Shown here: positions 609 to 18,484 of the stretch, one piece after another
Numbering within the stretch: the first letter of the stretch is position 1
Layout: each line of letters opens with the position of its first letter
DNA from: Lentisphaeria bacterium
GTDB lineage: Bacteria > Verrucomicrobiota > Lentisphaeria > Victivallales > Victivallaceae
NCBI GenBank assembly: GCA_017508015.1
Contig: JAFVZS010000070.1
Coordinates: 1 to 50,659 of the forward strand
Direction of reading: 5' to 3'
Length of the DNA stretch: 50,659 nucleotides
The notes under the pieces: model-generated
The model's database searches: none
The model's input: only the letters and a program-made list of their open reading frames with translations
What the model was told of the DNA's origin: nothing
Position numbers and translations under genes: made by a program

Positions 609-1003
609 CGTTTTCTTTGCCTGCTTTCTTTATAGAAAAGAACGCAGGGAATTTCGCTTTTCTTTGGTTACTTTCTTTTCTCGTGAAAATGCAGAATAAC
701 ATTTACGTTTTCTTTGCCTGCTTTCTTTATAGAAAAGAAAGTAGGGAATTTCGCTTTTCTTTGGTTACTTTCTTTTCTCGTGAGAATGTAGATGTAGAAT
801 GAAATTTCCGTTTTCTTTGCCTGCTTTCTTTATAGAAAAGAACGCAGGGAATCCCGCTTTTCTTTGGTTACTTTCTTTTCTCGTGAAAATGTAGATGTAG
901 AATGAAATTTCCGTTTTCTTTGCCTACTTTCTTTATAAAAAAGAAAGTAGGGAATCCCGCTTTTCTTTGGTTACTTTCTTTTCTCGTGAAAAGAAAGTAA
1001 CGG
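609..1003. repeat. tandem array of 4 near-identical units (97, 103, 103 and ~92 bp), each carrying hairpin-forming inverted repeats
   Basis: Units start at 609, 706, 809 and 912, each with CGTTTTCTTTGCC. Each unit has hairpin 1 (CCTRCTTTCTTT...AAAGAAMGYAGG), which is perfect with a 12-bp stem in unit 4 (923-951). Each also has the left arm of hairpin 2 (GTTACTTTCTTTTC). Only unit 4 completes hairpin 2: 970-983 pairs with 988-1001, a 14-bp stem with loop TCGT. There are no unique spacers. Confidence 0.9.
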
Positions 1004-4454: not shown

Positions 4455-5312
4455 ATGAATCGGAGTTCTTTTTGGGTTTTTTTGACCATGTTTTGCGTTG
4501 CGGTTGCCGGAGCGGCGGAACGTCCGTCAGTAAAAGGTGTGGTCAATGCAGATGTTTTAAATTTGCGTCAGGGGCCGGGGTTGCAGCAGCCGGTAGTCGG
4601 CCGGATCACGGAAAAAAGCGAAGTGGAAATTTTACGGGTGACCGGAAATTGGCTGGAAATAAAAGCCCCGTCCACCTTGGCCGTTTATGTTTCCGAGGCC
4701 CGTATCGGCCGGGATGGCGTATTGACCGGCGAGTTGAATATGCGTACGGCGATGAGCAGTAAAGCTCCGTGTCTTGGAACTTTGCCCAAAGGGACCAAAG
4801 TAAATAAAATCGGTGAATCCCGCAATGGTTGGGTACGTATTGAGTTGCCCGCAGAAGCCGGTATTTCGGTATATGCCGCATCATTTCTGGTGACCTTTGA
4901 TTCATCCAAATTTGATGCCGGCGGCAATATCATCGGTACTGTTCCGGCAGAAGCTCCGGCGACTGCTGAAAAACCTGCCGCCGCAGAAGTTCCGGCGACT
5001 GCTGAAAAACCTGCCGCCGCAGAAGTTCCGGCGACTGCTGAAAAACCTGCCGCCGCAGAAGCTCCGGCCGCCGCTGACAAGATCGAGTTGACCGGTTATG
5101 TCTGCAAATGGAAATACAGCACTGCCAAAGAGTGCGATTACACTTTGCTTGATGAACCCAATGGTTTCAATCTGGCTTTCATTTTCAGTGAAACTCCTGC
5201 TGAACTTGCTGCGCTTGAAGGTAAAAAGGTAAAAGTTTCCGGAAGCAATGCCGGCAGATTCGGCAATAACGGAGTGATCATTATCAAAGTGGACAGCATT
5301 GCTGAATTATAA
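4455..5312 (+). CDS. secreted protein with two SH3b-like domains, a repeat linker and a C-terminal domain
   Basis: Signal peptide MNRSSFWVFLTMFCVAVAGAA. Two segments match the pattern 'G.V....LN.R.GP.......G......V.......GNW..I' / 'NGWVRIELP', typical of bacterial SH3 domains. A Pro/Ala/Glu repeat linker follows. Confidence 0.85.
   Translation: MNRSSFWVFLTMFCVAVAGAAERPSVKGVVNADVLNLRQGPGLQQPVVGRITEKSEVEILRVTGNWLEIKAPSTLAVYVSEARIGRDGVLTGELNMRTAMSSKAPCLGTLPKGTKVNKIGESRNGWVRIELPAEAGISVYAASFLVTFDSSKFDAGGNIIGTVPAEAPATAEKPAAAEVPATAEKPAAAEVPATAEKPAAAEAPAAADKIELTGYVCKWKYSTAKECDYTLLDEPNGFNLAFIFSETPAELAALEGKKVKVSGSNAGRFGNNGVIIIKVDSIAEL
4948..5076 (+). repeat. in-frame 36-bp tandem repeat (3 full units plus one partial) encoding AEVPATAEKPAA
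   Basis: The unit GCAGAAGTTCCGGCGACTGCTGAAAAACCTGCCGCC occurs at 4948, 4984 and 5020 and is nearly perfect. A partial fourth copy runs to 5076. Confidence 0.9.
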
Positions 5313-5427
5313 AAACTATTAAACATTATTTTTACCGTCCGGGGGTTGAAAAATATCCCTTGACGGTGTAATAGTATTATTATATGGTGTTTGTTGTCAA
5401 TGTAAAACCTAAAAGAAAGGTCAAAAA

Positions 5428-7359
5428 TTGGAAAACAGAGAAGATTATAAACGGACGGATGACCGGGCCCGTTTGCTGACCAAACTGTCAGCGATCGGCG
5501 GGGCCGGAGCATTGGCGTTGCTGATATCAGTACTGATATTGGCGGCAAAACGCGGTGGTGATGTGTTGTCTCTGGCGGCGATACCCTACGCTCTGGCATT
5601 GCTCTTTGCCGTGATGGCTTTGGTGTATGGCGTGTTGTACGGGGCAGTACAACGGGAGGATGAGGAAAAACGTCTGCTCGCCAAAAGAATGGAAAGCCGT
5701 GCGTTGAATGTGGATGAAGATGTCCGTTTTACCGCCGGTAGAAGTTTTGCCAACTATACCCGGTTCGCGCCTTTTGTGATCGCAATTGCGGCGGTTGCGG
5801 TTATCGGCCTGATGCTGTGGCGCAACGTCGGCATGTGGAACTTGCGTGAAGGTGTCGGTGTGACTATGGAAGGTTCCCCGGTGCACACCGCATTGATTGC
5901 GGCCGTACTGATGATGGTCAGTGCTCTGGCCGGAGCGTTTATGGTCGGACAATCCCGGATGCCCGGTTTCCGCTGGCTGCGTCCGGTAGGTGCATGGCTG
6001 CTGATGGGATTTCTGACGCTTTGTGCCTCAGCGGTTTCCGCACTTTTCTTTGCCAACAATATCATTGAAGTTGATCCGGTGGTCAGCCGGGTGTTTTTCT
6101 GGATCTTTGTGGTGCTGGGAGCTGAATTTATCGTCAATTTCGTTATTGAATTTTACCGTCCCCGCACTTTGGGTGAGAGCCGGCCGGTGTTTGAAAGTCA
6201 GCTGCTCGCGCTCTTTACCGAACCGGGCGGGGTGTTGCGCAACATCGCTTCTGCGCTGGATTACCAATTCGGTTTCAAAGTTTCCGGTACCTGGATCTAC
6301 GGATTTATCGAAAGATCATTTTTTCCGGTGGTGCTGCTCTGGGCCGTGCTGTTGTGGGGATTTTCGGCGATCCATGAGGTCGGCCCCAATAATGTCGGCG
6401 TCCGGGAGCAATTCGGCCGGGCACATACCGGAGAGATATTGCATCCGGGGATCTATTTTACTCTGCCGTATCCATTCGGCACGATCCGTCAATTCAGCTG
6501 TACTGAGATCAAGACTCTGATCATCGGCGAAACTGCTGAAAGTGCTCAGGAGCGGGCCTCATCGCCGGTGGTGTTGTGGACCAATGCCCACGGCGGAGCC
6601 AAAGATCCTTTCCTCGTGGCGGTCAAAGAGAATGCTGAAGATACCGCTTCAGCCGGTGTGGAAAGCCGGGAAAGTGCCAGCGTTTCTTTCATCAATATGG
6701 CGATCCCCATCGAATTCCGGATCCGTGAAGACGGCGTTATTCAATATGCTTACGGCAACACTTCTCCGGAAGAAGTGCTGAGAAATCTCGGCGAACAGGT
6801 GGTCGTGGAGTATCTGGCCGGAGCCACCATGGAGGAATTCATGGGCGAAGGTCGCGGTCAGGCGGAGAAAATCCTGCGGGAAAAACTCCAGATACTGGCC
6901 GATCAGAATGAGTTGGGCGTGGAGATCATCCGGATCGCTGTGATGGATGCCCATCCGCCGGTGGAACAGGTCGCTCCGGCTTATCAGGAGTTTGTGGCCT
7001 CCATCGAGCAGAAAGACACCGAGATCCTCCGGGCCCTGGCCTATTGGAAAACCGTGGTGCTGGCGGCGGAAGCTGATGCGTTCCGTATCCGCACCGAAGC
7101 CAGAAGCCGTCAGGAAAATGCGGCGGTGGTGGCCAAAGCGGAAAGTGAACGTTTTGAACAGCAGTTGGCGGCATTCCGCAGTATGCGTTCCATGTTCATG
7201 CTCAATGCGCGTATGGAAGTTTGGGAAAATGAAGGACGCTCTGCCCGTAAATTCATTGTTCCCGCCGAGTTGAAAGATATCGTCTACCAGATGAATTTCG
7301 AGGAAAATGAAAGATTGGATCTGGGTGGTATCGATGTGTCTGATTTGAGTGATAAGTAA
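5428..7359 (+). CDS. polytopic membrane protein (~7 TM) fused to a C-terminal SPFH/band-7 (HflK/C-like) domain
   Basis: 643 aa with a TTG start and an AGAAAGG SD. The N-terminal ~300 aa has about 7 hydrophobic helices. Then comes an SPFH core (VGVREQFGR...GIYFTLPYPFG) and a coiled-coil tail with the AER/AEA pattern. Confidence 0.85.
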   Translation: MENREDYKRTDDRARLLTKLSAIGGAGALALLISVLILAAKRGGDVLSLAAIPYALALLFAVMALVYGVLYGAVQREDEEKRLLAKRMESRALNVDEDVRFTAGRSFANYTRFAPFVIAIAAVAVIGLMLWRNVGMWNLREGVGVTMEGSPVHTALIAAVLMMVSALAGAFMVGQSRMPGFRWLRPVGAWLLMGFLTLCASAVSALFFANNIIEVDPVVSRVFFWIFVVLGAEFIVNFVIEFYRPRTLGESRPVFESQLLALFTEPGGVLRNIASALDYQFGFKVSGTWIYGFIERSFFPVVLLWAVLLWGFSAIHEVGPNNVGVREQFGRAHTGEILHPGIYFTLPYPFGTIRQFSCTEIKTLIIGETAESAQERASSPVVLWTNAHGGAKDPFLVAVKENAEDTASAGVESRESASVSFINMAIPIEFRIREDGVIQYAYGNTSPEEVLRNLGEQVVVEYLAGATMEEFMGEGRGQAEKILREKLQILADQNELGVEIIRIAVMDAHPPVEQVAPAYQEFVASIEQKDTEILRALAYWKTVVLAAEADAFRIRTEARSRQENAAVVAKAESERFEQQLAAFRSMRSMFMLNARMEVWENEGRSARKFIVPAELKDIVYQMNFEENERLDLGGIDVSDLSDK

Positions 7360-7394
7360 TAACAAAAAACTTTTACTGGAGGCTGAATAAAATT

Positions 7395-8417
7395 ATGGCA
7401 AACGGAAACTTTTTCAAACATTGGCCGACAATGTTGCTCGGTCTGATCGTGGCGTTGATCCTGCTTACGGCGGTATTTTCGTTCCAGCTCAATCAGACGG
7501 AAGTCGCAGTAGTCACTACTTTCGGCAGACCTGCAGTGGTCAGCGAACCGGGACTGCACTTCCGCTGGCCCTATCCCTTTCAAAAAGTTTATCGCTTCGA
7601 CAAGCGTATCCGCTGTTATGAAGGCAGCAGCGGCCGTCTTGAGGAAACTGTAACCAAAGACGGTCACAATATCATCGTCGGCATCTACGTCAACTACCGT
7701 ATCAGCGATGTGGAGGTGTTTTTCAGCAAGCTTCAGGATATTTCCGGAGCCGAAGAAGTGCTCAATACGTTGATGCGCAGTGCGAAAAATGCGGCATTCG
7801 GCAAACGTGATTTCAAGCAGATCATCGTCTATGCCGGTCAGGAAACTGAAGAGGGCATCCGGGATGCCGCCGCACGGCAGGGTGAGAGTGCCGTGCAGAG
7901 TCAGGCACGCAGTGTGACTGACCTCAATGTGATCGCCGATGATATCAAAGCGACTCTGGTCGCTGATACCAGAGATTTCGGAATCGAAATCGTCGATGTC
8001 GGCATCAGCAGTCTCGGCGTGCCGGAAACGGTTACCGAAAAGGTCTTTGAGCGCATGATCGCTGAACGCCGGCGTTTTGTCGAGCAGAATCTGGCCCGCG
8101 GCCGCAGTGAAGCTGAAAAGATCCGCGTTGAAGCCAATTTGAACCGGGATAAACAGATCGCTGAAGCTCAGGCCGAAGCCTTGAGATTGCGGGCCGAGGG
8201 TGATGCGGCGGCCGCTCAATTCTACAAAGAATTTGCCAAAGATCAGGAGTTGGCTGAATTTCTCCGTAAGATCGAAGCTCTGCGGATGATGCTCAGAGAA
8301 CGCACCACACTGATCCTGGATCCCAGTATGCCTCCGTTTGATATCCTCAGCCCCGGAACTGTAATCCCCGGCAGCGGTGAAAAACCGGCCGCTGCGGCTC
8401 CGGCAGCCGTTAAGTGA
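7395..8417 (+). CDS. SPFH/band-7 protein, HflC-like
   Basis: 340 aa with a single N-terminal TM. Motifs TEVAVVTTFGRP..EPGLHFRWPYPFQKV, GIEIVDVGISSLGVPE, ERMIAERRR and AEGDAAAA are as in HflC. Confidence 0.88.
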   Translation: MANGNFFKHWPTMLLGLIVALILLTAVFSFQLNQTEVAVVTTFGRPAVVSEPGLHFRWPYPFQKVYRFDKRIRCYEGSSGRLEETVTKDGHNIIVGIYVNYRISDVEVFFSKLQDISGAEEVLNTLMRSAKNAAFGKRDFKQIIVYAGQETEEGIRDAAARQGESAVQSQARSVTDLNVIADDIKATLVADTRDFGIEIVDVGISSLGVPETVTEKVFERMIAERRRFVEQNLARGRSEAEKIRVEANLNRDKQIAEAQAEALRLRAEGDAAAAQFYKEFAKDQELAEFLRKIEALRMMLRERTTLILDPSMPPFDILSPGTVIPGSGEKPAAAAPAAVK

Positions 8418-8428
8418 AAGGCACGATC

Positions 8429-9586
8429 ATGGAGGAAAACAGAAGCGTAATTACCAATGAATTTGACCGCAGCGGGCGTTACGATGCCGGGTTGAAGTCA
8501 TTGGCCAGAAGTTTGCGGGTGGCGTTTTTGCTGCTGCTGATCGGCATTATTGCCACATTGATCTACTTCGTCAGCGGTGCCGGATATTTCTCGGTTGAAC
8601 CGCAGGAGGCGGTCATCGTTACCCGTTTCGGTCGTATCGTTGGCACTTTTACCACCGGCGGACACTGGTTCCTGCCTTACCCGGTCAATCAATTCATCCG
8701 GGTCAAGACCAGTCAGCAGCTGTTGGAAATCGATTTCGCCGCTGAGGAAAATCCCTCCGGTGAGGGTGGCGCTTTGCAGCCCGGGCGGGATAATTACATT
8801 ATCACCGGCGATGCCAATATCGTTCACAGTTCATGGACGATCGCCTATCGAGTGGAGAATCCGGAAAAATACTATTTGACTTTGCTGACACCGCAATTCC
8901 CGGTGGCAAACGGTCAGGTCGTGCCGGATGAAGAATTTACCGATGCGGATGGCATGGTCGGCACCCGCGGACCGACTACCTTTTTGCGTAATCTTTTCCG
9001 TCAGGCGGTAATCAATGTCACGGCAGAATCACATGTCAATGATATCCTTTATGCCGGTCAGAGTACTTACAGTGAGGAAGTCCGCCGGGAATTTACCCGC
9101 CTGATCACCGGAAGTGATTGCGGTATCGTGATCGAAAATGTCGGTCTCAACCGTATTTATCCGCCGGTCAAAACCAAAGCCGCATTTGAAGAAGTTACCT
9201 CTGCGATCAATGCCAGTTCAGCAATGCGCAACGAAGCTCTGGCTTACCGGGTCGCCCAGGAAAATGAGGCAGTTTCCCGGAGTGCGGCGATCATCGCAGA
9301 TGCTGATGCTTACAAACAGCGCATTACCGCCCAGCTCGGCGCACAGAGTGCTTATTTCAACAAAATTTATGAACAACACATCCTCCATCCGGGAACACTG
9401 ACGATGGCTCTTTACACCGATATGCTTCGGGAAGTGGCGGCGGCGATTCAGGGCGACAAGTTTCTGCTTGACAGTTCCGGCAGAGCGTTGTGGTTGAGAA
9501 TTAATCCGGAACGCCGAAGCTCCGGTGCCGGCAGCGGAACAGCCGGTTCGGCGGATAATGCCGCCGCATCACAGGAGGGCAGATAA
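8429..9586 (+). CDS. SPFH/band-7 protein, HflK-like
   Basis: N-terminal TM followed by FSVEPQEAVIVTRFGRIVG...GGHWFLPYP. The track ORF starts at GTG 8414, a 4-nt overlap with the upstream gene. ATG 8429 has an AAAGG SD, so the start is uncertain by 15 nt. Confidence 0.85.
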   Translation: MEENRSVITNEFDRSGRYDAGLKSLARSLRVAFLLLLIGIIATLIYFVSGAGYFSVEPQEAVIVTRFGRIVGTFTTGGHWFLPYPVNQFIRVKTSQQLLEIDFAAEENPSGEGGALQPGRDNYIITGDANIVHSSWTIAYRVENPEKYYLTLLTPQFPVANGQVVPDEEFTDADGMVGTRGPTTFLRNLFRQAVINVTAESHVNDILYAGQSTYSEEVRREFTRLITGSDCGIVIENVGLNRIYPPVKTKAAFEEVTSAINASSAMRNEALAYRVAQENEAVSRSAAIIADADAYKQRITAQLGAQSAYFNKIYEQHILHPGTLTMALYTDMLREVAAAIQGDKFLLDSSGRALWLRINPERRSSGAGSGTAGSADNAAASQEGR

Positions 9587-9588
9587 TC

Positions 9589-11622
9589 ATGAGCGAACAT
9601 ATTCATAATCATAACGGCGAGTGCTGCTGCGGACATGACCACGGTCATGATCATCATGATCACTGCAGCTGCGGTCACGATCATAAAGAAGACAGCACTT
9701 GCATTTGCGGTCACGATCACAAAGCCGAGGGCGGTGTGGGCCACGACCGTAGTATGGGCAGAGTTTTCTTTGCTCTGATCGGCGGTATTCTTACGGCCAA
9801 CTCTTTCATTCTCAACGCCTGGCTCCCGGAACAGGAGTTCGCCGCCAACATGTCGGCTCTTTTCGGTGCTTTCATTCTGGCTCTGCCGATCATTATCACG
9901 GCAGTCAAGGATCTGGTGCGCGGCAAGGTCTACATGAATGAGCTGGTGGCTCTGGCGATTCTGGCGGCTTTGGTCAAAGCAGATTTCCAGACGGCCGGTA
10001 TCATCGCATTTTTCCTGCTGGTCACGATCATTATTGAAACCCGTACTGCCAGCGGAGCGCAACGCTCCATTGAAGAGCTGATCAAACTGACACCGAATAC
10101 GGCCAATTTGATCGGTGAAGACGGCAGTGAGCAGGAAGTTGCCGCCCAGAATTTGAAAGTCGGTGACCGCATCCGTATCCGTCCGGGTGAGAACTTTCCG
10201 GTTGACGGCCGGATCATTGCCGGTGAAAGTACGGTGAATCAGGCTTCGATCACCGGTGAATCAGTGCCGGTGGAAAAGGTCGCCGGGGAAGATGTTTTTG
10301 CCGGTACGCAGAATTTGACCGGTGCGGTCGATGTCACCGTGACCAAAGTCGGCGGCGAAACTACTCTGGGCAAAGTTAAAGAGATGATCATGCAGGCCGA
10401 AGCCAGCCGTACTCCGGTGGTGCGGATCATTGACCGTTATGCCGGATATTACACTCCGACGGTGCTGATGATCGCCTGGATCACCTGGTGGTTCAGCCGG
10501 GACATGAATTCCGTGATCGCGTTTCTGGTGATCGCCTGTCCCTGTGCCGTGGTGCTGGCCACTCCGACTGCAGTGGTTGCGGCGGTGGCCGCAGCGGCCC
10601 GGTTGGGAATTTTTATCAAAAATATCAGCCATCTGGAATTGGCCAGCCGGATTTCGGCATTTGTTTTTGACAAGACCGGTACGCTGACCGATGGTTTGCT
10701 CTCGGTGGTCAAATTGCAGGGCAGTGAAGGTGTTTCGCCGGCTGAATTGCTCAGTTGTGCCGCTTCAGTGGAACGCTTCAGTAATCACCCGACGGCATTG
10801 GCGATCATCAAACTGGCTGAAGAAGCCGAATTGGAACTCGATGATGTCACCGGTTTTGCGGAGGTGCACGGCCGGGGGGTTTCCGGTACGGCCAACGGTT
10901 CAGTCTGCCGGGTAGGCCGGGCCAACTGGATGCGTGAGAATGGTTTGAGTGTGCCGGAAAGTGATCCGGAAGAGGCCAGCGGTATGAGCGTGGTTTATGT
11001 CAGTAAAGATGATAAATTGCTCGGCTGGATCGGTTTCCGTGACAAGATACGCAAAGAATCCCAGGTGCTGCTTTCTGATTTGCGCCGTTTGGGAGTGCGT
11101 TACTGCGCGATGGTCACCGGTGACCGGCAATCAGTGGCTGAAGAGGTCGCCGGACAGCTCAATATCGATGAATTCAAAAGCGGTTGTCTGCCGGAAACCA
11201 AAGTGGAATTTGTGGAAAATGTCAAGCGTGATCATACCGTGGCAGTGGTTGGTGACGGTGTGAATGACGCTCCGGCACTTGCCGCCGGTGATCTGGGTAT
11301 CGCCATGGGGGCAATCGGCAGTGACATTGCGATCAACAGTGCTTCTGTGGCGTTGATGACCAACGATCTGCGCCGTATCGCCATGCTGATATTCCTGGCT
11401 AAAAAATCTCAGGTGGTCATCAATCAGAACCTGATTTTCGGAATGCTCTTTGTCTTTGGCGGTATGATCCTTTCCATTGTCGGTCTGATGACCCCGATCT
11501 GGGCTGCTGTGATCCATGCCGGCAGTACTCTGGTGATCGTATTCAACAGTGCCCGTCTGGTGCGTACCGGTGAGGAATTGACTCTGGCGGATAAATCTGA
11601 TTCAGACCAACAATTGTCGTAA
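9589..11622 (+). CDS. heavy-metal translocating P1B-type ATPase (Zn/Cd/Co-like) with a His/Cys-rich N-terminus
   Basis: 677 aa. Motifs TGES, CPC in TM6, DKTGTLT and GDGVNDAPAL; about 8 TM helices. The N-terminal 55 aa contain three CxCGHDH motifs. Confidence 0.95.
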   Translation: MSEHIHNHNGECCCGHDHGHDHHDHCSCGHDHKEDSTCICGHDHKAEGGVGHDRSMGRVFFALIGGILTANSFILNAWLPEQEFAANMSALFGAFILALPIIITAVKDLVRGKVYMNELVALAILAALVKADFQTAGIIAFFLLVTIIIETRTASGAQRSIEELIKLTPNTANLIGEDGSEQEVAAQNLKVGDRIRIRPGENFPVDGRIIAGESTVNQASITGESVPVEKVAGEDVFAGTQNLTGAVDVTVTKVGGETTLGKVKEMIMQAEASRTPVVRIIDRYAGYYTPTVLMIAWITWWFSRDMNSVIAFLVIACPCAVVLATPTAVVAAVAAAARLGIFIKNISHLELASRISAFVFDKTGTLTDGLLSVVKLQGSEGVSPAELLSCAASVERFSNHPTALAIIKLAEEAELELDDVTGFAEVHGRGVSGTANGSVCRVGRANWMRENGLSVPESDPEEASGMSVVYVSKDDKLLGWIGFRDKIRKESQVLLSDLRRLGVRYCAMVTGDRQSVAEEVAGQLNIDEFKSGCLPETKVEFVENVKRDHTVAVVGDGVNDAPALAAGDLGIAMGAIGSDIAINSASVALMTNDLRRIAMLIFLAKKSQVVINQNLIFGMLFVFGGMILSIVGLMTPIWAAVIHAGSTLVIVFNSARLVRTGEELTLADKSDSDQQLS

Positions 11623-11634
11623 GAGGTAGCTTTC

Positions 11635-12834
11635 ATGGAACGCAATTATGAACCAGTGGTACAGGCGGTCGGTCTGACCAAAATGTTCCGGGATTTCTGG
11701 AACCGTCCCAAAGCCCGGGCGGTCAATGGCATTGATTTTGAGATCAAGCCCGGTGAAGTGGTCGGTTTGCTCGGTCCCAACGGTTCGGGTAAATCCACCA
11801 CGGTCAAGATGCTTTTGGGGCTGCTTTACCCGACCGGCGGCAAGATTTCGGTTTTCGGTAAATCGCCCCGGGCGGTGGAAACCAAAAAAGAGATCGGTTA
11901 TCTGCCGGAAGAGTCCTATTTGTATAAATTTCTGACCGCAGAGGAAACGCTGAACTTTTTCGGTTCGCTTTTCAACATTTCGGCGGAGGATCGCAAGCGG
12001 CGCATCGATCAGCTTCTGGATATGGTCGGGCTTGCTCATGCCCGTTACCGCCGGGTTGGAGAATTTTCCAAGGGAATGGCCCGCCGTATCGGGCTGGCGC
12101 AGGCGATGATCAATGATCCGGCGTTTCTGATCCTTGATGAACCGACCAGCGGTTTGGACCCGTTGGGGTGCCGGGAGGTCAAAGATTTGATTCTGGCGTT
12201 GAAAAAACGGGGTAAAACCGTTTTGATCACCAGCCATTTGCTCAGCGATGTGGAAGATATCTGTGACCGGGTGATTATTCTCTACGGCGGTAAAGTCCGG
12301 GCGGAAGGTGCTTTGGATAAGCTGCTTACGGTCAGTGATCAAACCCGTATCCTTACACCGCAGCTGCCCCGGGAGGCAATGGATAAGCTTTTGGAACTGC
12401 TCCGGGCCAATCTGGATGGCGAGGAATTCAGGATCGATCATCCCCGCCGCACTTTGGAAGAGTTTTTCCTCGACGTTATTGCTCAGGCCCGGCGTGAGAG
12501 CGTGGAAACTGCCGGTGTCGCCGGCGGCGGCGGTATTGCCGAGTATCTTGCCGGCAGCGAAACGGCCGATGAGAAAAGTGCATTGCTCAATACTTTGATG
12601 CAGGAACCGGTCGCTCCGGAAGTCAAGAAGAGTGAAGCTGTCGAAAATGCTGAACCGGCATCTGAAAAGGTGGAAATTTCCGCAGATGACAAGATCGCTT
12701 CGGTGCTCGGTGATAATTCAGGTGCAGTGAAAAAAGAAAGTGTTCAGGCAGAGGAGAGTGGCAAAAAGGCGGAAAATATGCGCCGTGCCAACAGCAAACT
12801 TGATTCTCTGCTCGGCGATAAATCAGGTGAATGA
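11635..12834 (+). CDS. ABC transporter ATP-binding protein (ABC-2/NosF-like) with a ~110-aa acidic disordered tail
   Basis: Walker A GPNGSGKST, signature FSKGMARR, Walker B FLILDEPTSGLD. The C-terminal tail is rich in E, K, S and A. Confidence 0.93.
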   Translation: MERNYEPVVQAVGLTKMFRDFWNRPKARAVNGIDFEIKPGEVVGLLGPNGSGKSTTVKMLLGLLYPTGGKISVFGKSPRAVETKKEIGYLPEESYLYKFLTAEETLNFFGSLFNISAEDRKRRIDQLLDMVGLAHARYRRVGEFSKGMARRIGLAQAMINDPAFLILDEPTSGLDPLGCREVKDLILALKKRGKTVLITSHLLSDVEDICDRVIILYGGKVRAEGALDKLLTVSDQTRILTPQLPREAMDKLLELLRANLDGEEFRIDHPRRTLEEFFLDVIAQARRESVETAGVAGGGGIAEYLAGSETADEKSALLNTLMQEPVAPEVKKSEAVENAEPASEKVEISADDKIASVLGDNSGAVKKESVQAEESGKKAENMRRANSKLDSLLGDKSGE

Positions 12835-14297
12835 TGAAAGCGTTTCGTGCCATCGTAGCTTTGACTTTCCGCAATGCGGTGCGGTCACACATCTTTCAGC
12901 TGCTGCTGATATTGCTGCTGCTTTGTGTGACATTGATCCCGTTTTCGGTATCGACCGGTAAGATCGATGACCTGATCCGGGTTTCCCTGTTGTACAGTTT
13001 GTGGTCGGTCAGTATAGTATTGACCTTATCTTCACTGTGGCTGGGATGCTATATCATGTCTCATGATATAGACAATTATCAGATACACATGGTGGTTTCC
13101 AAGCCGGTTCCGCGCAGTGTGATCTGGCTGGGCAAGTGGGCAGGTATCAATTTGATCAACATTGTATTGCTGCTGTTCGCCGGTCTGGTGGTTTATGCGG
13201 TGGTGATGCTGCGTTATAATGAAGCCGGTGAAACCGGCCGTTTTGCCGACCGGGAAGTGGCCCGGCAGAATGCTGAAGCGGAAAGAGCGCGCATCCGGTC
13301 GCAGATACTGGTCGGCCGCCGGGTATTCATGCCGGAATTACCGGACCCGGAAAAGGTCGCGGAAGCCGCTGTAAATCAGCGTATTCAGGAGTTGGCTCAG
13401 GAAGGTAAGCAATTTACTGACAGTGAGATCGCCCGGTTGCGTGATGAGGTCAGGCGCGATATCAGTACCCGGCCTATCGAAGTGGTTCCGGCCCGGCTCA
13501 ATGAAGCGGGGATCCCGTTGACAGCAGCCACCGCTCATACCTGGATATTCAAGGATCTGCCGGCTGATTTGAATAAAGGCCGGTTGATTTTGCGTTTCCG
13601 GCCGTATTTGAATAAGGTTGCCAGCGAGGATCAGCGTGACAGCCGGATGTGGTGGGGCGTGCAAAATCCGGCGGCGGTGCAAAGTGCCGGTGAAAGCGGC
13701 TCATATATGGCCGTCACCCCCTATCCTGAAGCTTACTTCACCGGGGAATTTCATGAACATTTTCTGCCGGATGGGGTGATCAGCCCCGAAGGGATCGTGA
13801 AAATCCAGGTGGTCAATGCCGATACGCAGGGCGGAAAACACTACTATCAGATCGCTGACGGACCGCAATTGTTGATCCCGGTCTGCGGCTTTGAGGCAAA
13901 TTATCTGCGGGCAATGCTGGTGATGCTGGTGCAGTTGCTGCTGCTTTCCGGTCTGGCATGTGCCTTCGGCGGTTGTCTGACGATGCCGACGGCGATTTTC
14001 ATGGTGGTAAGTTATCTGCTTTTCGGTTCTTTATCCATGATTCTGACGGATGCATCATTTTTCATCTCGACAGCATGGGACAAGCTTGGTAATATTCTGG
14101 CAAAAACTTTGCTGCTGGTGGTCATACCATTGCAGAATTTTGATGTGACAGATATGTTGTCAAACGGAGAATTGATCGAATTTTCTTTCATCTGGAAACT
14201 CTTTTTTGAATATTTCCTGCTGCGCGGAGTGCCGCTTTTCCTGTTGGGGATCTGGCTCTACCGGCGGCGTGAAATGGGATCGGCGGTGAGAAAATGA
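12831..14297 (+). CDS. ABC-2 family permease with a large (~230-aa) soluble insert
   Basis: 488 aa with a 4-nt overlap on the ATPase gene. The N-terminal TMs carry an ABC-2-type motif (HMVVSKPVPRSVIWLGKW). A long charged insert follows, then C-terminal TMs. Confidence 0.8.
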   Translation: MMKAFRAIVALTFRNAVRSHIFQLLLILLLLCVTLIPFSVSTGKIDDLIRVSLLYSLWSVSIVLTLSSLWLGCYIMSHDIDNYQIHMVVSKPVPRSVIWLGKWAGINLINIVLLLFAGLVVYAVVMLRYNEAGETGRFADREVARQNAEAERARIRSQILVGRRVFMPELPDPEKVAEAAVNQRIQELAQEGKQFTDSEIARLRDEVRRDISTRPIEVVPARLNEAGIPLTAATAHTWIFKDLPADLNKGRLILRFRPYLNKVASEDQRDSRMWWGVQNPAAVQSAGESGSYMAVTPYPEAYFTGEFHEHFLPDGVISPEGIVKIQVVNADTQGGKHYYQIADGPQLLIPVCGFEANYLRAMLVMLVQLLLLSGLACAFGGCLTMPTAIFMVVSYLLFGSLSMILTDASFFISTAWDKLGNILAKTLLLVVIPLQNFDVTDMLSNGELIEFSFIWKLFFEYFLLRGVPLFLLGIWLYRRREMGSAVRK

Positions 14298-15901
14298 ATA
14301 GATTCCGCAATATGACATTGATACTGGTTCTGATACTGGTGACCGTCGGTGCGCTTTTCGGAGTGCGGCAGATCGAATATAAACTTGACCGTACGATCAA
14401 TGAGGAGCATTTGCGTTTTACCGGTGCGGTGACTGATGCCCCGCCGGCGATGGTGTTTACCACCGTGGCTCTGGGCAGTTTCCGGGGATTGTTGGCTGAT
14501 ATCCTCTGGCTGCGTTCCGAGTCGCTCAAAAGTAAAAAGAACTACTTTGAAATGGTGCAGCTGGCCCGCTGGATAACCGATTTGCAGCCCAACTACTCCG
14601 GTGGTACGGTTTATCTGGCGTGGAATCTTGCCTACAATATTTCGGTGACCAGTTCCGATTGGGAAGACCGCTGGTACTGGGTTAATGAAGGGCTCAAACT
14701 GATCCGGGATAAGGCGTTGATCTACAATCCGGATGATCCGATGCTCTACCGGGAACTGTCGTGGATATATCTGCACAAGCTCGGCAATCTGATGGATGAT
14801 GCCCACTTGTACTATAAAAATCAGATGGCAGTCCAAATGGGCAATGTACTGGGGCGTTATCTGACCGATTTGAAACCGCTGGCCGATGCTCCGGTCGGCA
14901 AAGAGGAGTTCATGCGTATCTATCCGGCGGATCATCCGCTTTGGGAAGCGGTGAAAAAGGCCGGTTACAAAGATTACGATCAACTGGCGGCCAAATTCCG
15001 GGAACCGGTTCAGGCGGCATTGCCTGCGGATCTCAAGATCCGCAGTGAGTATTACAATGCACTTGATGCGCATTTCCGGGCGGAATTGCTCCGGGAAAGA
15101 TTCAAACTTGATCCCAAACGGATGGTCGCTCTTGATGAGAAGTATGGACGCATGGATTGGCGCGTGCCGGAATCACAGGCGATCTACTGGGCCGAAACCG
15201 GAGTGGAAAAGAGCATTGCCAACGGCCGTCAGCCGGATGTCAACTGTATGCGTACGGTAACTCACGGTTTGCAGGCGGCATTCCGCAGCGGCCGGGTGTT
15301 GATGGTTGACAATGATGCCAGAGTATTTCAGGCGGTTCCGAATCTGAATCTGGCAGATTCCGCATACGCGGCTTTTGAGGCGGCCGAAGATGAATTTTCG
15401 CAATCGGGTGCCGGGGAAAGTTTCCGCAGTGCCAAGATCAATTACCTCAAAGATTCCATCCCGTTGATCTACATCTACGGCAACCGTTCCAAAGCTCAGG
15501 AATTTTATGAAAAATTGCAGGAGATCGACGGACCGCAAAGACAGCGCAATCTGGATGACTTCGTCCGCAACCACTTCGTGGAAGATGTGCGTGATGCGGA
15601 TGTGGAAAAGGCCACTTCCGTGGTCAGCGGATTGATCCAGCGGGCCTTGTGGGAATTGCTGCTGGGCAACCGGGAGGCGGCAGTGTACAATGAAAGTATG
15701 GCCCGGAGCATCCATCAGATATATACACAGAAAAATAAAGATGTCCGCCGCAATCAATTGCCGGAATACAATCAGATCAAGTACTTTGTGGTCAGCAATA
15801 TGCTGCGCAATCTGCCGGAAGCTGCTCAACGCCGCCTGATTGAGGAAATCCAGGCTGAACAGGCGGAAAGTGCGGCTGGAGAACCGGGAGGAAACAACTG
15901 A
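14294..15901 (+). CDS. hypothetical membrane-anchored protein (535 aa)
   Basis: 4-nt ATGA overlap with the permease gene. One N-terminal TM (MTLILVLILVTVGALFG), then a helix-rich W/Y/L-rich domain. I recognise no family. Confidence 0.8.
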   Translation: MNRFRNMTLILVLILVTVGALFGVRQIEYKLDRTINEEHLRFTGAVTDAPPAMVFTTVALGSFRGLLADILWLRSESLKSKKNYFEMVQLARWITDLQPNYSGGTVYLAWNLAYNISVTSSDWEDRWYWVNEGLKLIRDKALIYNPDDPMLYRELSWIYLHKLGNLMDDAHLYYKNQMAVQMGNVLGRYLTDLKPLADAPVGKEEFMRIYPADHPLWEAVKKAGYKDYDQLAAKFREPVQAALPADLKIRSEYYNALDAHFRAELLRERFKLDPKRMVALDEKYGRMDWRVPESQAIYWAETGVEKSIANGRQPDVNCMRTVTHGLQAAFRSGRVLMVDNDARVFQAVPNLNLADSAYAAFEAAEDEFSQSGAGESFRSAKINYLKDSIPLIYIYGNRSKAQEFYEKLQEIDGPQRQRNLDDFVRNHFVEDVRDADVEKATSVVSGLIQRALWELLLGNREAAVYNESMARSIHQIYTQKNKDVRRNQLPEYNQIKYFVVSNMLRNLPEAAQRRLIEEIQAEQAESAAGEPGGNN

Positions 15902-15939: not shown

Positions 15940-15988
15940 CTGCCGGAGCAAAAAGCTGAATGATTGCTCCGGCAGGAAATTTCTTTTC
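15940..15988 (+). terminator. rho-independent terminator ending the 5428-15901 operon
   Basis: 11-bp perfect stem: CTGCCGGAGCA (15940-15950) pairs with TGCTCCGGCAG (15965-15975). It is followed by GAAATTTCTTTTC. Confidence 0.7.
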
Positions 15989-16047
15989 AGCAACATAAGG
16001 TGTACGCAAAAAAATCACAGGTGCGTACAGAAATATCGGGGAAAAAA

Positions 16048-17328
16048 GTGGAGGATTTTTTAGTATCGGGCATTTCAGATAGTGCCGCAGGTGAATGGCT
16101 GATTCTATTTGTCAGTCTTTTCTGTGCATTGTTTATTTCGCATATATGTTCATTGATGGAAGCGGCGGTGCTGAGTGTGACCCCGAGTCAGTTGGCCGAG
16201 TTGCGCCAGAAACATCCGGCAACCGGAAATCTGGCTCAGAATCTCAAACGGGATATCGATAAACCGCTGGCGGTGATCCTGATTTTAAATACGGCGGCTC
16301 ATACGATCGGTGCCGCACTGGCCGGTGCCAGTTTTGCCGAGTTGGGATACGGCAGATACATGGGAATATTTTCACTGGTTTTTACGCTGGTGATGGTTCA
16401 ATATACTGAGTTGCTGCCGAAAACTCTCGGAGTCAGATTCAATGTATCCATTTTGCGTGTGGCGGTAAGACCGCTGCATGCGGCAACTGTCGTGCTGGCC
16501 CCGCTGATCAAACTGACTAAAATCATCAACCGTCCGTTTGAGGTACGGGCTCCGGCAAGGCCGACTCCGGCCGAGGAGATTTCGGCTCTGGCCGCTATGG
16601 CCCGCAGTACTCAGGCGATTTCCAGCCGTCAGGAGCGGATAATCCGCATGGTTCCGTCACTGTCGGAAAAGAGTGCTGTGGAAGTGATGATCGCTCTGGA
16701 AGATGTCTCTTTTCTGGATGCCGATATGTCGCTTGACGATGCGATCAATGCCACCGGAAATGATTTTCACACCCGTTATCCGTTGTGTATTGAAGGGGAT
16801 CGCAGCCGGGTGCCCGGTTATGTGAATATCAAAGAGATCATTCTGGCGGTACAGCACGGCAAAGGGGATATGAAAGTATCGGATATCATGCGGCCGATCG
16901 CTTTTGCCGATTCCGATGACAGTGCATCAAAACTGTTGGAAATGTTCGCCGCCCAGCATTGTCACATGACGATCGTGCGGGATGTGGTTTCCGGCAAGAC
17001 TTGCGGTCTGGTCACACTGGAGGATATCGTTGAGGAGTTGATCGGGGATCTGGATGATGAATTTGATCCGCTGCCCCGGACATTTTATGCACCCGGCGAT
17101 AATTTGTGGGTGGTCGGCGGCGGAGTGCCGTTGACCCAGCTGGCCAGAGATACACAGTTGGATTTACCGCGCCGGACTGAATCGGTTTCGGCATGGTTCG
17201 GCCGGGAATTGGGCAAACAGGTTAAGGTCGGAGATACGCTGACCTGGAAAAATGCGGTATTGTTTGTCCGCAAAGTCCGCCGCCGTCAGGCATGGGAATT
17301 TCATGTGAAACGGCGCAAACTGCTGTAA
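16048..17328 (+). CDS. CNNM/CorC-HlyC family transporter (DUF21 + CBS pair + CorC_HlyC domain)
   Basis: TM-rich N-terminus, and TLEDIVEELIGDLDDEFD at the CBS/CorC junction. The track ORF starts at 15964, which is inside the upstream terminator. GTG 16048, preceded by GGGGAAAAAA, is the likely start but remains uncertain. Confidence 0.88.
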   Translation: MEDFLVSGISDSAAGEWLILFVSLFCALFISHICSLMEAAVLSVTPSQLAELRQKHPATGNLAQNLKRDIDKPLAVILILNTAAHTIGAALAGASFAELGYGRYMGIFSLVFTLVMVQYTELLPKTLGVRFNVSILRVAVRPLHAATVVLAPLIKLTKIINRPFEVRAPARPTPAEEISALAAMARSTQAISSRQERIIRMVPSLSEKSAVEVMIALEDVSFLDADMSLDDAINATGNDFHTRYPLCIEGDRSRVPGYVNIKEIILAVQHGKGDMKVSDIMRPIAFADSDDSASKLLEMFAAQHCHMTIVRDVVSGKTCGLVTLEDIVEELIGDLDDEFDPLPRTFYAPGDNLWVVGGGVPLTQLARDTQLDLPRRTESVSAWFGRELGKQVKVGDTLTWKNAVLFVRKVRRRQAWEFHVKRRKLL

Positions 17329-18100: not shown

Positions 18101-18484
18101 ATGCTGGAACTGGATTTTCAGAAGAGCGGCGGTTTGATCCCCGCTGTTGCACAGGATTATAAGAGTGGCGAGGTGCTGATGCTGGCATATATTTCTCCGG
18201 AATCATGGGCGGAAACGCTCAAATCCGGGTATGCCACTTACTTTTCACGCAGCCGCAATAAACTTTGGAAAAAGGGCGAATCCAGCGGGCATCTGCAAAA
18301 AATCAAAGCGATATTGGTGGATTGTGATCTGGATACGGTCATTTTTAAAGTCGATCAGGCCGGGCCGGGAGCCTGTCATACCGGTCACCGGAGCTGCTTT
18401 TACCGGGAAGTAGATGGTGATACTTTGCGGGAAGTTGAAGAGGCTGTTTTTGATGCTGAAAAGGTTTATCAGGTGAAAAAATGA
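18101..18484 (+). CDS. hisI: phosphoribosyl-AMP cyclohydrolase
   Basis: GLIPAVAQD, YFSRSRNKLWKKGESSGH, DCD and CHTGHRSCF motifs; 127 aa. Confidence 0.95.
   Translation: MLELDFQKSGGLIPAVAQDYKSGEVLMLAYISPESWAETLKSGYATYFSRSRNKLWKKGESSGHLQKIKAILVDCDLDTVIFKVDQAGPGACHTGHRSCFYREVDGDTLREVEEAVFDAEKVYQVKK

Follow-up and report, generated by a model that had tools for sequence, protein, structure and literature searches.

A conserved composite gene cluster encoding three SPFH proteins, a P1B-type metal ATPase and an ABC-2 type transporter in Lentisphaerota and distant bacteria

A contig of a Lentisphaeria bacterium (GCA_017508015.1, JAFVZS010000070.1), analysed over 50,659 nt (the window), carries seven adjacent genes, g1 to g7, and raises the question why three SPFH proteins, a metal pump and an ABC-2 system should be encoded together. 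The explanation we favour, and hold to be somewhat better than evenly probable, is a conserved composite operon of two separable modules: a dedicated partnership of the SPFH trio with the P1B ATPase (module A, g1-g4) and an ABC-2 type transporter (module B, g5-g7). Most likely, the SPFH trio serves the metal ATPase as a dedicated partner and, in PVC bacteria, is co-expressed with the ABC-2 system. The cluster joins a widespread four-gene unit (three scaffolds and a metal ATPase, of the kind induced by zinc starvation in Pseudomonas) to an ABC transporter set, and so points to a concrete partner, open to testing, for SPFH scaffolds of otherwise obscure purpose.

Layout of the cluster and its flanking signals

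All seven genes that an earlier note on this DNA had described as co-directional were found as open reading frames on the forward strand, and the junctions between them were reproduced (+35, -4 or, from the alternative ATG of g3 at 8429, +11, then +2, +12, -4 and -4 nt). The upstream region, described as AT-rich, is a gap (5313-5427) with 30.4% GC compared with 53% for the cluster. It holds a candidate promoter-like region (5343..5388, forward strand) composed of GGGTTGAAAAA, 17-18 nt and GGTGTAATAGT, in which a promoter consensus scan located sigma-70-like matches at 5346-5375 (with TG) and 5360-5388. The motif GGGTTGAAAAA...GGTGTAATA/GGTGTATTAATA recurs 5' of g1 in many of the 55 Lentisphaerota loci described below.

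Downstream of g7, the terminator proposed at 15940-15988 (forward strand) is present as a putative hairpin, predicted from sequence and folding. A perfect inverted repeat (15940-15951 / 15964-15975; 12-bp stem, 12-nt loop) is followed by the T-rich tail GAAATTTCTTTTC, and 15940-15975 is the minimum free energy structure (z = -3.0 against shuffles). The consensus terminator scan gave no call at the 15940-15975 hairpin because its loop limit is 8 nt, whereas the loop of this hairpin has 12 nt.

The SPFH trio and its relation to HflK/HflC

Domain searches with Pfam and NCBIfam (E <= 0.01; NCBIfam equivalog cut-offs applied) detected Band_7 in g1, g2 and g3, as expected for the three SPFH/band-7 proteins claimed at this locus. 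The first gene of module A, g1 (5428-7359, forward strand, TTG start), encodes a protein of 643 aa in which hydropathy gives seven TM segments ahead of a Band_7 domain at residues 317-536, in agreement with the proposed 7-TM-SPFH fusion. This domain is HflK-like: the best PDB sequence match of g1 is E. coli HflK, and its score against the HflK model is 74.2 bits, below the cut-off of 159.4. The protein is predicted to be N-in with seven TM segments, and therefore its SPFH domain should lie on the periplasmic side, like that of HflK/C. The most strongly conserved stretch of g1 is the loop between TM6 and TM7 (E..E.YRPR...DYQFGFKVS.TW). A relationship of the N-terminal domain to ABC-2 permeases was rejected (hhalign probability 1-2%).

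The second gene, g2 (7395-8417, forward strand; 340 aa, single N-terminal TM), is of the HflC type. It scored 157.6 bits against TIGR01932 (HflC), above the equivalog cut-off of 134.4, and aligned over nearly its full length with the E. coli HflC chains of 7VHP/9CZ1 (E 4e-28). The third gene, g3 (8414-9586, forward strand, GTG start; 390 aa, single N-terminal TM), is HflK-like, with 108.6 bits against TIGR01933 (HflK), under the cut-off of 159.4, and E. coli HflK as the best PDB match (E 1e-14). Its identity to g1 or g2 is at most 25%.

These matches allow a simpler reading, namely that g2 and g3, perhaps also g1, are the ordinary HflK/HflC of the organism and modulate an FtsH encoded elsewhere, with the transporters as neighbours or at most as FtsH substrates. 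The HflC assignment of g2, the HflK matches of g1 and g3, and the PDB sequences matched best, which are HflK and HflC chains from the FtsH-HflKC complex, are all in line with it, as are the 104-136 bits reached by E. coli HflK and HflC against the PVC profiles of g1, g2 and g3. The earlier note had reasoned that the system is not canonical HflKC since no ftsH is present. No FtsH-like ORF indeed occurs within the window, but the argument fails: in E. coli K-12 no ftsH lies within 6 kb either side of the hflK-hflC pair of the hfq-hflX-hflK-hflC region, so that a missing ftsH at the locus is uninformative. What makes this reading unlikely is that three SPFH genes are present instead of the two of canonical systems, that one product has a conserved 7-TM domain and loop, and that g1 and g3 stay below the HflK cut-off. 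Moreover, proteobacterial plasmids carry the trio together with a P1B ATPase, in the neighbourhood of transposases and IS elements, and P. aeruginosa possesses a separate canonical hfq-hflX-hflK-hflC locus besides its three-SPFH operon.

Like the E. coli HflK/HflC of the FtsH complex (PDB 7VHP, 7WI3, 9CZ1), the trio comprises HflC-type (g2) and HflK-type (g1, g3) proteins by sequence, for each of which an N-in membrane anchor and an SPFH domain in the periplasm are predicted. Unlike them, it consists of three paralogues rather than two, one with six additional TM segments and a conserved cytoplasmic loop, and it is genetically linked to a P1B ATPase instead of hfq-hflX. The solved structure of the HflK/C cage suggests, by analogy, that the three proteins would most likely form a hetero-oligomeric ring or cage together, at the periplasmic side of the inner membrane. 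The extra six TM helices of g1, together with the cytoplasmic loop, would be the likeliest tether to the ATPase.

The metal ATPase and its recurrence with SPFH genes

The last gene of module A, g4 (9589-11622, forward strand; 677 aa), had been called a His-rich P1B metal ATPase, and this was borne out by its score against TIGR01525 (heavy-metal P1B ATPase; 534.8 bits, above 346) and by an N-terminus with 14 His and 7 Cys within 56 aa. The protein contains DKTGT, TGES and a nearly invariant CPC in TM4, as well as a conserved His in TM6 (HAGST here, LHN[AV]GS or LHN[MVF][SG]T in orthologues). Neither the Cu-type (YN, MxxSS) nor the Zn-type (K, DxG) signatures were found in g4. The C-terminal NSARLVRxGEEL is kept in most PVC orthologues, and g4 shows the highest conservation among the seven genes (64-97% within Lentisphaerota). 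A small NJ tree separates the module-linked ATPases, as one group, from E. coli ZntA and CopA.

The link between SPFH proteins and the metal ATPase proved stronger than first proposed, as the four-gene order g1-g4, located by a g1 anchor, recurs on five proteobacterial plasmids (Klebsiella, two Rhizobium, Paraburkholderia and Burkholderia). There, genes for a long multi-TM HflK-like protein, an HflC-like protein, an SPFH protein and a P-type ATPase follow each other with short or overlapping junctions, and each best matches its corresponding PVC profile (E 1e-35 to 1e-44 for the g1 counterparts). The third proteobacterial SPFH gene matches the g3 profile more weakly than E. coli HflK does, and g4 is 35-37% identical overall to the ATPases of the plasmid modules, which does not exceed its identity to unrelated P1B ATPases from plasmids. 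The ATPases of the five modules carry ACPC in TM4 and LLHN[MVF][SG]T in TM6, and the N-terminus is His-rich in four of the five. Two of the five modules adjoin transposases or IS elements, and one adjoins a znuABC-like zinc importer and a PCu(A)C copper chaperone gene. Module A would pair three deeply diverged HflK/HflC-type SPFH proteins with one type of P1B ATPase, marked by CPC in TM4, a conserved His in TM6 and a His-rich N-terminus.

Comparable in architecture is the hmtA locus of P. aeruginosa (PA2439-PA2435), where three SPFH genes, the HflK-family gene first, precede a P1B ATPase, as they do in g1-g4 and in the five plasmid modules. Unlike the PVC cluster, it has no ABC-2/g7 module and has the extra hypothetical genes PA2434 and PA2436. 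To judge by locus numbering, its SPFH genes are PaFlo5-7 (PA14_33070, PA14_33080 and PA14_33110). In a znuA mutant, PA2439 (HflK family), PA2438 (HflC), PA2437 (HflC family) and PA2435 (HmtA) were up 5.6- to 14.4-fold (PMC4542158), and zinc depletion raises proteins of the locus (PMC11761036). The promoter of PA2439, which is reported to open the hmtA locus, is shifted by Zur (PMC8531726). Cellular Zn and Cu increase on HmtA overexpression (PMC10393844); HmtA-mediated import has been described as needing confirmation, and zinc excess did not repress hmtA (PMC10393844, PMC8531726). A P. aeruginosa mutant without the three-SPFH operon had only subtle phenotypes under the conditions tested. Control by Zur and zinc depletion is documented for the hmtA locus. 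A Zur-box-like site was sought 5' of g1 in this genome and on the five proteobacterial plasmids, and none was found. The metal handling proposed for the cluster stands by analogy only, and the matched locus has been linked to zinc limitation and to uptake, as reported, not to detoxifying export. Within zinc/copper-type metal homeostasis, the SPFH assembly would confine the pump, stabilise it or gate it, and it may do so when metal is scarce rather than abundant. The literature searched treats SPFH genes and hmtA separately, and the words hmtA, ATPase and P-type are absent from a 2026 SPFH survey.

The closest documented example of such a working principle is given by the PacL1-CtpC metal efflux platforms (effluxosomes) of M. 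tuberculosis, in which a small membrane scaffold from the same operon stabilises a P1B ATPase in membrane foci (PMC9374683; PMC13043812) that form independently of the flotillin homologue (PMC9374683). Unlike the SPFH trio, PacL proteins are cytoplasm-facing DUF1490 proteins, and no PacL-like domain was found in any of the seven proteins with Pfam. Stomatin/flotillin-NfeD operons likewise encode an SPFH protein with a dedicated membrane partner (PMC2636767), but the partner here is an ATP-driven pump, and the seven proteins contain no NfeD domain detectable with Pfam or NCBIfam. Neither the word ABC nor ATPase occurs in a 2009 survey of prokaryotic SPFH operons.

The ABC-2 part and the modular composition of the cluster

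The first gene of module B, g5 (11635-12834, forward strand; 399 aa), encodes an ABC ATPase of the DrrA/GldA/CcmA type (ABC_tran, E 3e-34), whose top NCBIfam matches, DrrA and GldA, are both under their cut-offs. The long acidic tail ascribed to it exists as a low-complexity C-terminal stretch of 109 aa (residues 291-399), but its acidity is just moderate (22 acidic versus 13 basic residues). Distant phyla have orthologues of about 400 aa, and a Nitrospirota homologue (328 bits) has no such tail. The product of g6 (12831-14297, forward strand; 488 aa) is a divergent ABC-2 family permease with 6 TM. The insert of about 230 aa noted before corresponds to a 227-aa stretch between TM3 and TM4 by hydropathy; the insert (about 215-227 aa) is predicted to be periplasmic and to consist of a helical stalk and a beta-sandwich (AF2 model: pLDDT 84.6, pTM 0.81). 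Neither g6 nor g7 has a Pfam or NCBIfam match at E <= 0.01. Orthologues of g6 match PF12679 at E 1e-4 to 1e-5, in line with precomputed PF12679 annotations, and profile-profile comparison aligned g6 over its whole length with perm2, an insert-less paralogue (98.4% probability, E 5e-15). The third protein, g7 (14294-15901, forward strand; 535 aa), is membrane-anchored by one N-terminal TM and belongs to an unannotated family, as had been claimed; it has no PDB sequence match either. Its AF2 model (pLDDT 81) is an all-alpha helical repeat, TPR-like, with weak TPR-type matches only in Foldseek (TM-scores 0.1-0.2). Module B would be an ABC-2 type transporter with a periplasmic beta-sandwich in one permease and a membrane-tethered helical-repeat protein as accessory.

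The combination of a DrrA/GldA-like ATPase, ABC-2 family permeases and a membrane-anchored accessory is shared with NosDFY and GldAFG. However, NosD, NosL and GldG domains are missing here, the periplasmic domain is an insert inside the permease, and the g7 family is unannotated. A NosDFYL-like periplasmic metal delivery, in which the P1B ATPase supplies metal and the ABC-2 system with g7 loads exported client proteins through ATP-driven movements, would fit the weak Pfam matches of the g6 and perm2 families to ABC-2 membrane families, since PF12679 also contains NosY-type permeases. It would also fit the PCu(A)C gene beside one proteobacterial module A, and, to our knowledge, every structurally characterised P1B ATPase is an exporter. 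We nevertheless consider it very unlikely: no NosD, NosL or other chaperone domain was found in the seven proteins with Pfam and NCBIfam, the parts of g6 and g7 that lie in the periplasm show no evident conserved cluster of Cys or His, and in Proteobacteria module A functions without module B.

Loci were located by a g7 anchor, so that PVC genomes with module A but without module B fall outside the following counts. The adjacency of the genes is not confined to this genome, and the g1-g7 order recurs across three bacterial phyla. It is kept in all 55 Lentisphaerota species genomes whose sequence reaches far enough upstream to judge, while the flanks change (SH3 gene kept in 13/55, rpe in 13/61), and in 26 of the 35 distant loci having at least 8.8 kb upstream of g7, including one Phycisphaerae and two Verrucomicrobiota MAGs. 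The distant loci also cover lineages at most 39% identical to any named reference, and their junctions are short or overlapping as well. A second ABC-2 permease gene, perm2, adjoins g1 in 25 non-Victivallales loci (almost all such loci) and is missing from the window's version of the cluster. With perm2 beside g1 and g5-g7 on the other side, module A is bracketed by ABC components.

The idea of one seven-gene unit holds insofar as the genes are conserved together, but the cluster is composite, since g5-g7 occur without g1-g4 and g1-g4 without g5-g7. As each module occurs alone, a physical complex between them is not required. The occurrence of g5-g6-g7 alone in Verrucomicrobiota-like loci, and of a set of g5, g6-like, short g7-like and perm2-like genes on a Nitrospirota plasmid, could indicate that the ABC-2 system is the functional core. 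It would then act in the envelope, as an exporter or as a mechanotransducer, on a cargo of glycan, lipid or protein that the g6 beta-sandwich and the g7 repeats handle in the periplasm, with module A inserted and kept only for co-regulation. The bracketing of module A agrees with this, and the g6 insert weakly resembles jelly-roll carbohydrate-binding modules and P-domains, but these Foldseek matches are weak (E >= 5e-3, query TM-score < 0.2) and no conserved cargo-related enzymes lie nearby. Moreover, co-regulation alone poorly explains why three phyla have retained module A within this operon, tightly joined, and the most conserved gene of the set is g4. We thus judge this reading improbable, and the envelope export role suggested earlier for the ABC part is a conjecture. 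Under the favoured composite operon, module A lies inside an ABC operon in PVC bacteria, and the two modules would therefore be co-transcribed and probably serve the same membrane process.

Among 1.84 billion clustered proteins, the g7 family has 2,614 representatives at E <= 1e-3. Its conserved core comprises residues ~50-175, and the same core is found in a Nitrospirota protein of 276 aa.

The seven genes and their predicted products

Seven co-directional open reading frames of the plus strand (g1-g7, 5428-15901) were found exactly at the positions claimed in the earlier note, and the junctions that it listed (+35, -4 (+11 if counted to an internal ATG), +2, +12, -4 and -4 nt) were reproduced. 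The GC content of the gap upstream of the cluster was 30.4%, compared with 53% in the cluster. A promoter-like motif (GGGTTGAAAAA, about 17 nt, GGTGTAATAGT/GGTGTATTAATA), common to many Victivallales loci, lies at 5343-5388. A shared palindromic operator upstream of g1 was not found in 5343-5388 and the upstream regions of loci L004-L083 of the comparison set. The terminator claimed downstream of the cluster was recovered as a hairpin at 15940-15975 with a perfect 12-bp stem and a T-rich tail, which a consensus terminator scan had missed because of its 12-nt loop.

The SPFH/Band_7 domain (PF01145) was detected in g1 (E 2e-10), g2 (E 3e-28) and g3 (E 4e-17), three proteins with pairwise identities of at most 25%. 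The g2 protein exceeded the cut-off of the HflC equivalog TIGR01932 (157.6 against 134.4 bits), and both g1 (74.2 bits) and g3 (108.6 bits) stayed below that of the HflK equivalog TIGR01933 (159.4 bits). Among solved structures, g1 and g3 came closest to HflK of E. coli, and g2 to its HflC. Hydropathy analysis predicted seven transmembrane (TM) helices in g1 before the SPFH domain and one N-terminal TM helix each in g2, g3 and g7. With its basic N-terminus taken as inside, the SPFH domain of g1 would be placed outside, on hydropathy only. Conservation of g1 peaks in the predicted cytoplasmic TM6-TM7 loop (E..E.YRPR...DYQFGFKVS.TW) and not in a TM helix. The idea that g1 is a rhomboid-like protease fusion was rejected because GxSG and His catalytic motifs are missing and TM conservation is low.

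The earlier note had taken the absence of ftsH from the locus as a sign that this is not a canonical HflKC-FtsH system. Indeed, no ftsH was found in the 50-kb window nor in seven annotated related loci. However, this is not an argument, since hflKC of E. coli is likewise unlinked from ftsH. No NfeD (PF01957) or PacL (DUF1490) domain was detected in the seven proteins at E <= 0.01. The likeness of the cluster to stomatin-NfeD and PacL-P-ATPase scaffold operons is functional only.

The g4 protein is a P1B heavy-metal ATPase. It possesses the phosphorylation site FDKTGT, the actuator motif ITGES and ACPC in TM4, and scored 534.8 bits against TIGR01525 (heavy-metal P1B ATPase; cut-off 346.25). Among its orthologues the CPC of TM4 is almost invariant and the His of TM6 is conserved, and most PVC orthologues share a C-terminal motif NSARLVRxGEEL; the long His/Cys-rich N-terminus is an elaboration of the Victivallales. 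P1B subgroups are distinguished by YN and MxxSS (P1B-1, Cu+), K and DxG (P1B-2, Zn2+) or SPC and HEGxT (P1B-4, Co2+/Zn2+). None of these signatures was found in g4: TM5 has neither YN nor K, TM6 reads HAGST instead of MxxSS or DxG, and TM4 has CPC instead of SPC. Only the TM6 His aligned with HEGST of the P1B-4 structure 7QBZ. Matches in the PDB to CopA, ZntA and sCoaT were equally good, and because Cu-type and Zn-type signatures are both absent, no subgroup or metal could be assigned to g4.

The g5 protein matched the ABC ATPase family PF00005 (E 3e-34) and contains Walker A, signature and Walker B motifs (GPNGSGKST, FSKGMARR and LILDEP). No Pfam or NCBIfam match was obtained for g6 and g7. 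The g6 protein of the window scored below threshold against PF12679 (E 0.67); several orthologues gave sub-threshold matches (E 1e-4 to 1e-5) or carried a precomputed PF12679 annotation. Hydropathy revealed a stretch of 227 aa between TM3 and TM4 of g6. Its confident AF2 model (pLDDT 84.6, pTM 0.81) comprises six long helices preceded by an N-terminal interfacial helix, and folds the TM3-TM4 region into a helical stalk and a beta-sandwich that weakly matches jelly-roll carbohydrate-binding modules and P-domains. The beta-sandwich dominated the best 50 Foldseek matches of the model, among which no ABC-2 permease appeared.

A second, insert-less ABC-2 permease of about 320 aa (perm2) adjoins the cluster in 25 loci outside the Victivallales. 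In most of these perm2 is co-directional and immediately upstream of g1; it is divergent in a Phycisphaerae-like group and downstream of g7 in one locus. One perm2 reached the cut-off of PF13346 (25.5 against 25 bits). Profile-profile comparison with hhalign aligned g6 and perm2 over their full length (98.4% probability, E 5e-15), which shows, at the level of sequence profiles, that the two are paralogues along their whole length, g6 having an insert in addition. Because perm2 adjoins the cluster and has its paralogue in g6, the SPFH and ATPase genes outside the Victivallales appear to be bracketed by parts of one ABC-2 transporter. No perm2 was found in the 50-kb window nor in any of the 57 Lentisphaerota loci with at least 1 kb upstream of g1. 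The idea that the six extra TM helices of g1 are a degenerate ABC-2 permease standing in for the missing perm2 was rejected, given an hhalign probability of 1-2% and a length of g1 that is the same in lineages that keep perm2.

A profile search placed g7 in a large family (2,614 clusters at 50% identity) that lacks Pfam or NCBIfam annotation. The AF2 model of g7 (pLDDT 81) comprises a TM helix and an all-alpha solenoid as well as a poorly predicted linker, and conservation is concentrated in residues ~50-175 and 284-303. The many invariant W, N, D and Y residues had prompted the idea of an enzyme or glycan-active fold, which was dropped because the model is a plain helical-repeat solenoid. The fold weakly resembles TPR superhelices (best E 8.6e-4, TM-scores 0.1-0.2); TPR sequence repeats were not found, as judged by the absence of a Pfam TPR match.

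Conservation of the gene order and occurrence of its parts

In order to assess conservation, g7 was used as the anchor, being the least annotated gene, and 80 loci were fetched from one-genome-per-species collections, all of them from Lentisphaerota. According to tblastn and profile searches, the order g1-g7 was the same in all 55 loci long enough to judge, at identities down to ~40%. The flanks turn over in the same loci: the upstream SH3 gene was kept in 13/55 and the downstream rpe gene in 13/61. More distant loci were collected by a metagenome scan seeded with g7 representatives that were 27-38% identical. Of the distant loci, 35 had 8.8 kb or more of sequence upstream of g7; the metagenome scan, whose loci include near-duplicates, contributed 32 of them and protein look-ups three. 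The full order was present in 26 of the 35, only g5-g6-g7 in six and g7 alone in three, counts that are biased by the choice of g7 as anchor (g1 in the plasmid search). The neighbours of the g5-g7-only and g7-only loci were unrelated housekeeping or regulatory genes.

Among named metagenome-assembled genomes (MAGs), the full cluster was present in one of Phycisphaerae and two of Verrucomicrobiota. The metagenome loci were sorted by identity to proteins of named reference MAGs, on whose names the taxonomic labels rest, into Verrucomicrobiota-like, Phycisphaerae-like and unaffiliated groups, and each group contained full clusters. Since full clusters recur in these groups as well as in Lentisphaerota, an adjacency peculiar to this one genome, which the earlier note had named as the outcome that would speak against its reading, is contradicted. 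By comparison of the sequences, the adjacency of g1-g7 is ancient and has been maintained.

One distant full cluster (L166) carries two small unannotated ORFs of 188 aa between g1 and g2 (L166 2218-2784) and of 100 aa between g4 and g5 (L166 7020-7322). The gene order thus tolerates insertions.

Both parts of the cluster were also observed separately. The genes g5-g7 occurred without g1-g4 in one Verrucomicrobiota MAG. A similar set was found on a plasmid of a Candidatus Manganitrophus (Nitrospirota) MAG (CP114559.1, locus 5726-15038), comprising an ATPase that resembles g5 (328 bits), two permeases, one g6-like with the insert and one perm2-like, and a 276-aa protein that corresponds to the conserved N-terminal core of g7; these genes sit among pilM, PilZ and prepilin-type genes.

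Conversely, a plasmid search with g1 recovered the four-gene order g1-g4, with overlapping or short junctions, on five proteobacterial plasmids of Klebsiella aerogenes, Rhizobium tumorigenes, Rhizobium lusitanum, Paraburkholderia sprentiae and Burkholderia ubonensis; g5-g7 were absent from all five modules. Each plasmid gene gave its best match to the corresponding PVC profile, with reciprocal best profile matches, and the third SPFH gene was the least clearly orthologous of the four. The plasmid g1-like proteins have multiple TM helices and the same loop motif as g1 of PVC bacteria. The plasmid ATPases share ACPC in TM4 and LLHN[MVF][SG]T in TM6, and the N-terminus is His-rich in four of them. 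A small NJ tree with few outgroups grouped the module-linked ATPases apart from E. coli ZntA and CopA; overall identity failed to separate them from other plasmid P1B ATPases. Transposases or IS elements flank two of the five modules, and one module adjoins genes for a znuABC-like importer and for PCu(A)C. A Zur box was not found upstream of g1 in the window and the five plasmid modules, where no site near the modules came closer to a Zur-box consensus than 4 mismatches in 15, nor did these upstream regions share an operator.

Relation between the SPFH proteins and the ATPase

A comparable locus is known from P. aeruginosa, in which PA2439 (HflK family), PA2438 (HflC), PA2437 (HflC family) and PA2435 (the P1B ATPase HmtA) were up-regulated 5.6- to 14.4-fold in a znuA mutant (PMC4542158). 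Proteins of this locus also increased upon zinc depletion (PMC11761036), and overexpression of HmtA raised cellular Zn and Cu (PMC10393844). The hmtA-type locus has the order long HflK-like, HflC-like, SPFH and P1B ATPase gene in one tight unit, as in the window, the PVC loci and the five plasmids; its gene order was taken from PMC4542158 and PMC8531726, and the likeness to g1-g4 is one of architecture. A 2026 survey of P. aeruginosa SPFH proteins described three SPFH genes in one operon (PaFlo5-7), whose scattered distribution hints at horizontal transfer and whose mutant phenotypes were only subtle (PMC13086221); the words hmtA, ATPase and P-type do not occur in it. The locus numbering suggests that PaFlo5-7 correspond to PA2439-PA2437.

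The earlier note had proposed a scaffolded membrane module for metal handling or envelope export, a reading that is supported in part. The seven genes indeed form a conserved unit in PVC bacteria, but the unit is composite, as g1-g4 and g5-g7 each occur alone. As far as gene content and order can tell, an hmtA-type module is embedded in an ABC-2 transporter operon, and PVC phyla have retained this arrangement. In functional terms, the evidence best supports the SPFH trio as a putative dedicated partner of the g4-type ATPase, because the genes have been transferred and retained together across very distant bacteria. The trio may confine, stabilise or gate the pump, by analogy with HflK/C cages and with the mycobacterial PacL1-CtpC platforms, in which a P1B ATPase is stabilised in membrane foci by a scaffold from its own operon, and this does not depend on flotillin (PMC9374683). 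Judging by the Pseudomonas data, the module may serve zinc/copper homeostasis, possibly when metal is limiting.

A more far-reaching reading, which we regard as improbable, is that the three SPFH paralogues assemble, on the periplasmic side, into a closed cage of the HflK/C kind that encloses the P1B ATPase and, in PVC bacteria, also the ABC-2 transporter with its periplasmic beta-sandwich and helical-repeat parts. Such a cage would seal a periplasmic micro-compartment over a membrane patch, where a transition metal might be concentrated, captured or passed on to clients. If so, bacteria would possess a "metal-handling chamber", and an SPFH cage would have its first defined client other than a protease.

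SPFH proteins (stomatin, prohibitin, flotillin, HflK/C) are found across every domain of life, and their client specificity is a long-standing question. To our knowledge, the target of bacterial SPFH scaffolding is known essentially only for FtsH. Here, a set of three SPFH genes is hard-wired to that of one specific metal-pumping ATPase in Proteobacteria, including mobile plasmid copies, and in three PVC phyla, where the set lies inside an ABC transporter operon. This gives an SPFH assembly a putative client that is defined genetically. The linkage may also explain why SPFH genes, so far without an explanation, are present in the zinc-responsive hmtA locus of P. aeruginosa, and cultured, genetically tractable hosts exist. 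None of the enzymatic parts falls outside known superfamilies, and earlier work had already listed the Pseudomonas locus. In the literature searched, no description was found of the cross-phylum SPFH-trio/P1B module, of its position inside an ABC-2 operon throughout PVC bacteria, or of the large g7 family.

Other features of the window

The window is an ordinary chromosomal region of Lentisphaerota (Victivallales), with other genes for HrpB, a Xer-type recombinase, a MurB-Ddl fusion, DnaB and BamA. Downstream of g7 and the hairpin lies a gene for a CNNM/CBS/CorC-type divalent-cation transporter (15964-17328), which was present in this position in 54/67 Lentisphaerota loci and in only 1/50 distant loci. 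Its mechanically called TTG start at 15964 falls within the terminator-like hairpin, and GTG at 16048, preceded by GGGGA, is the likelier start. Upstream of the cluster, the gene of an SH3_3-domain protein (4455-5312) contains a 36-nt (12-aa) tandem repeat at 4947-5068 (3.4 copies, 97% identity), which also produced three spurious terminator-like matches on the minus strand.

A 103-nt tandem repeat (607-992; 3.8 copies, 92% identity) lies in a low-GC stretch beside the 3' end of the gene for the HrpB-like helicase (971-3394 on the minus strand), and a 30-nt tandem repeat (45914-46029; 3.9 copies, 96% identity) lies inside an ORF at 45836-46540. The MurB fusion is a single ORF of 692 aa (18481-20559) that joins MurB (FAD_binding_4, MurB_C) to D-Ala-D-Ala ligase, and it was also called in a related genome (L003). 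Finally, a polytopic membrane protein of 594 aa (30511-32295), which has no Pfam match at E <= 1e-5, is encoded where the window has its strongest AT skew (-0.32 at 31001-32000).
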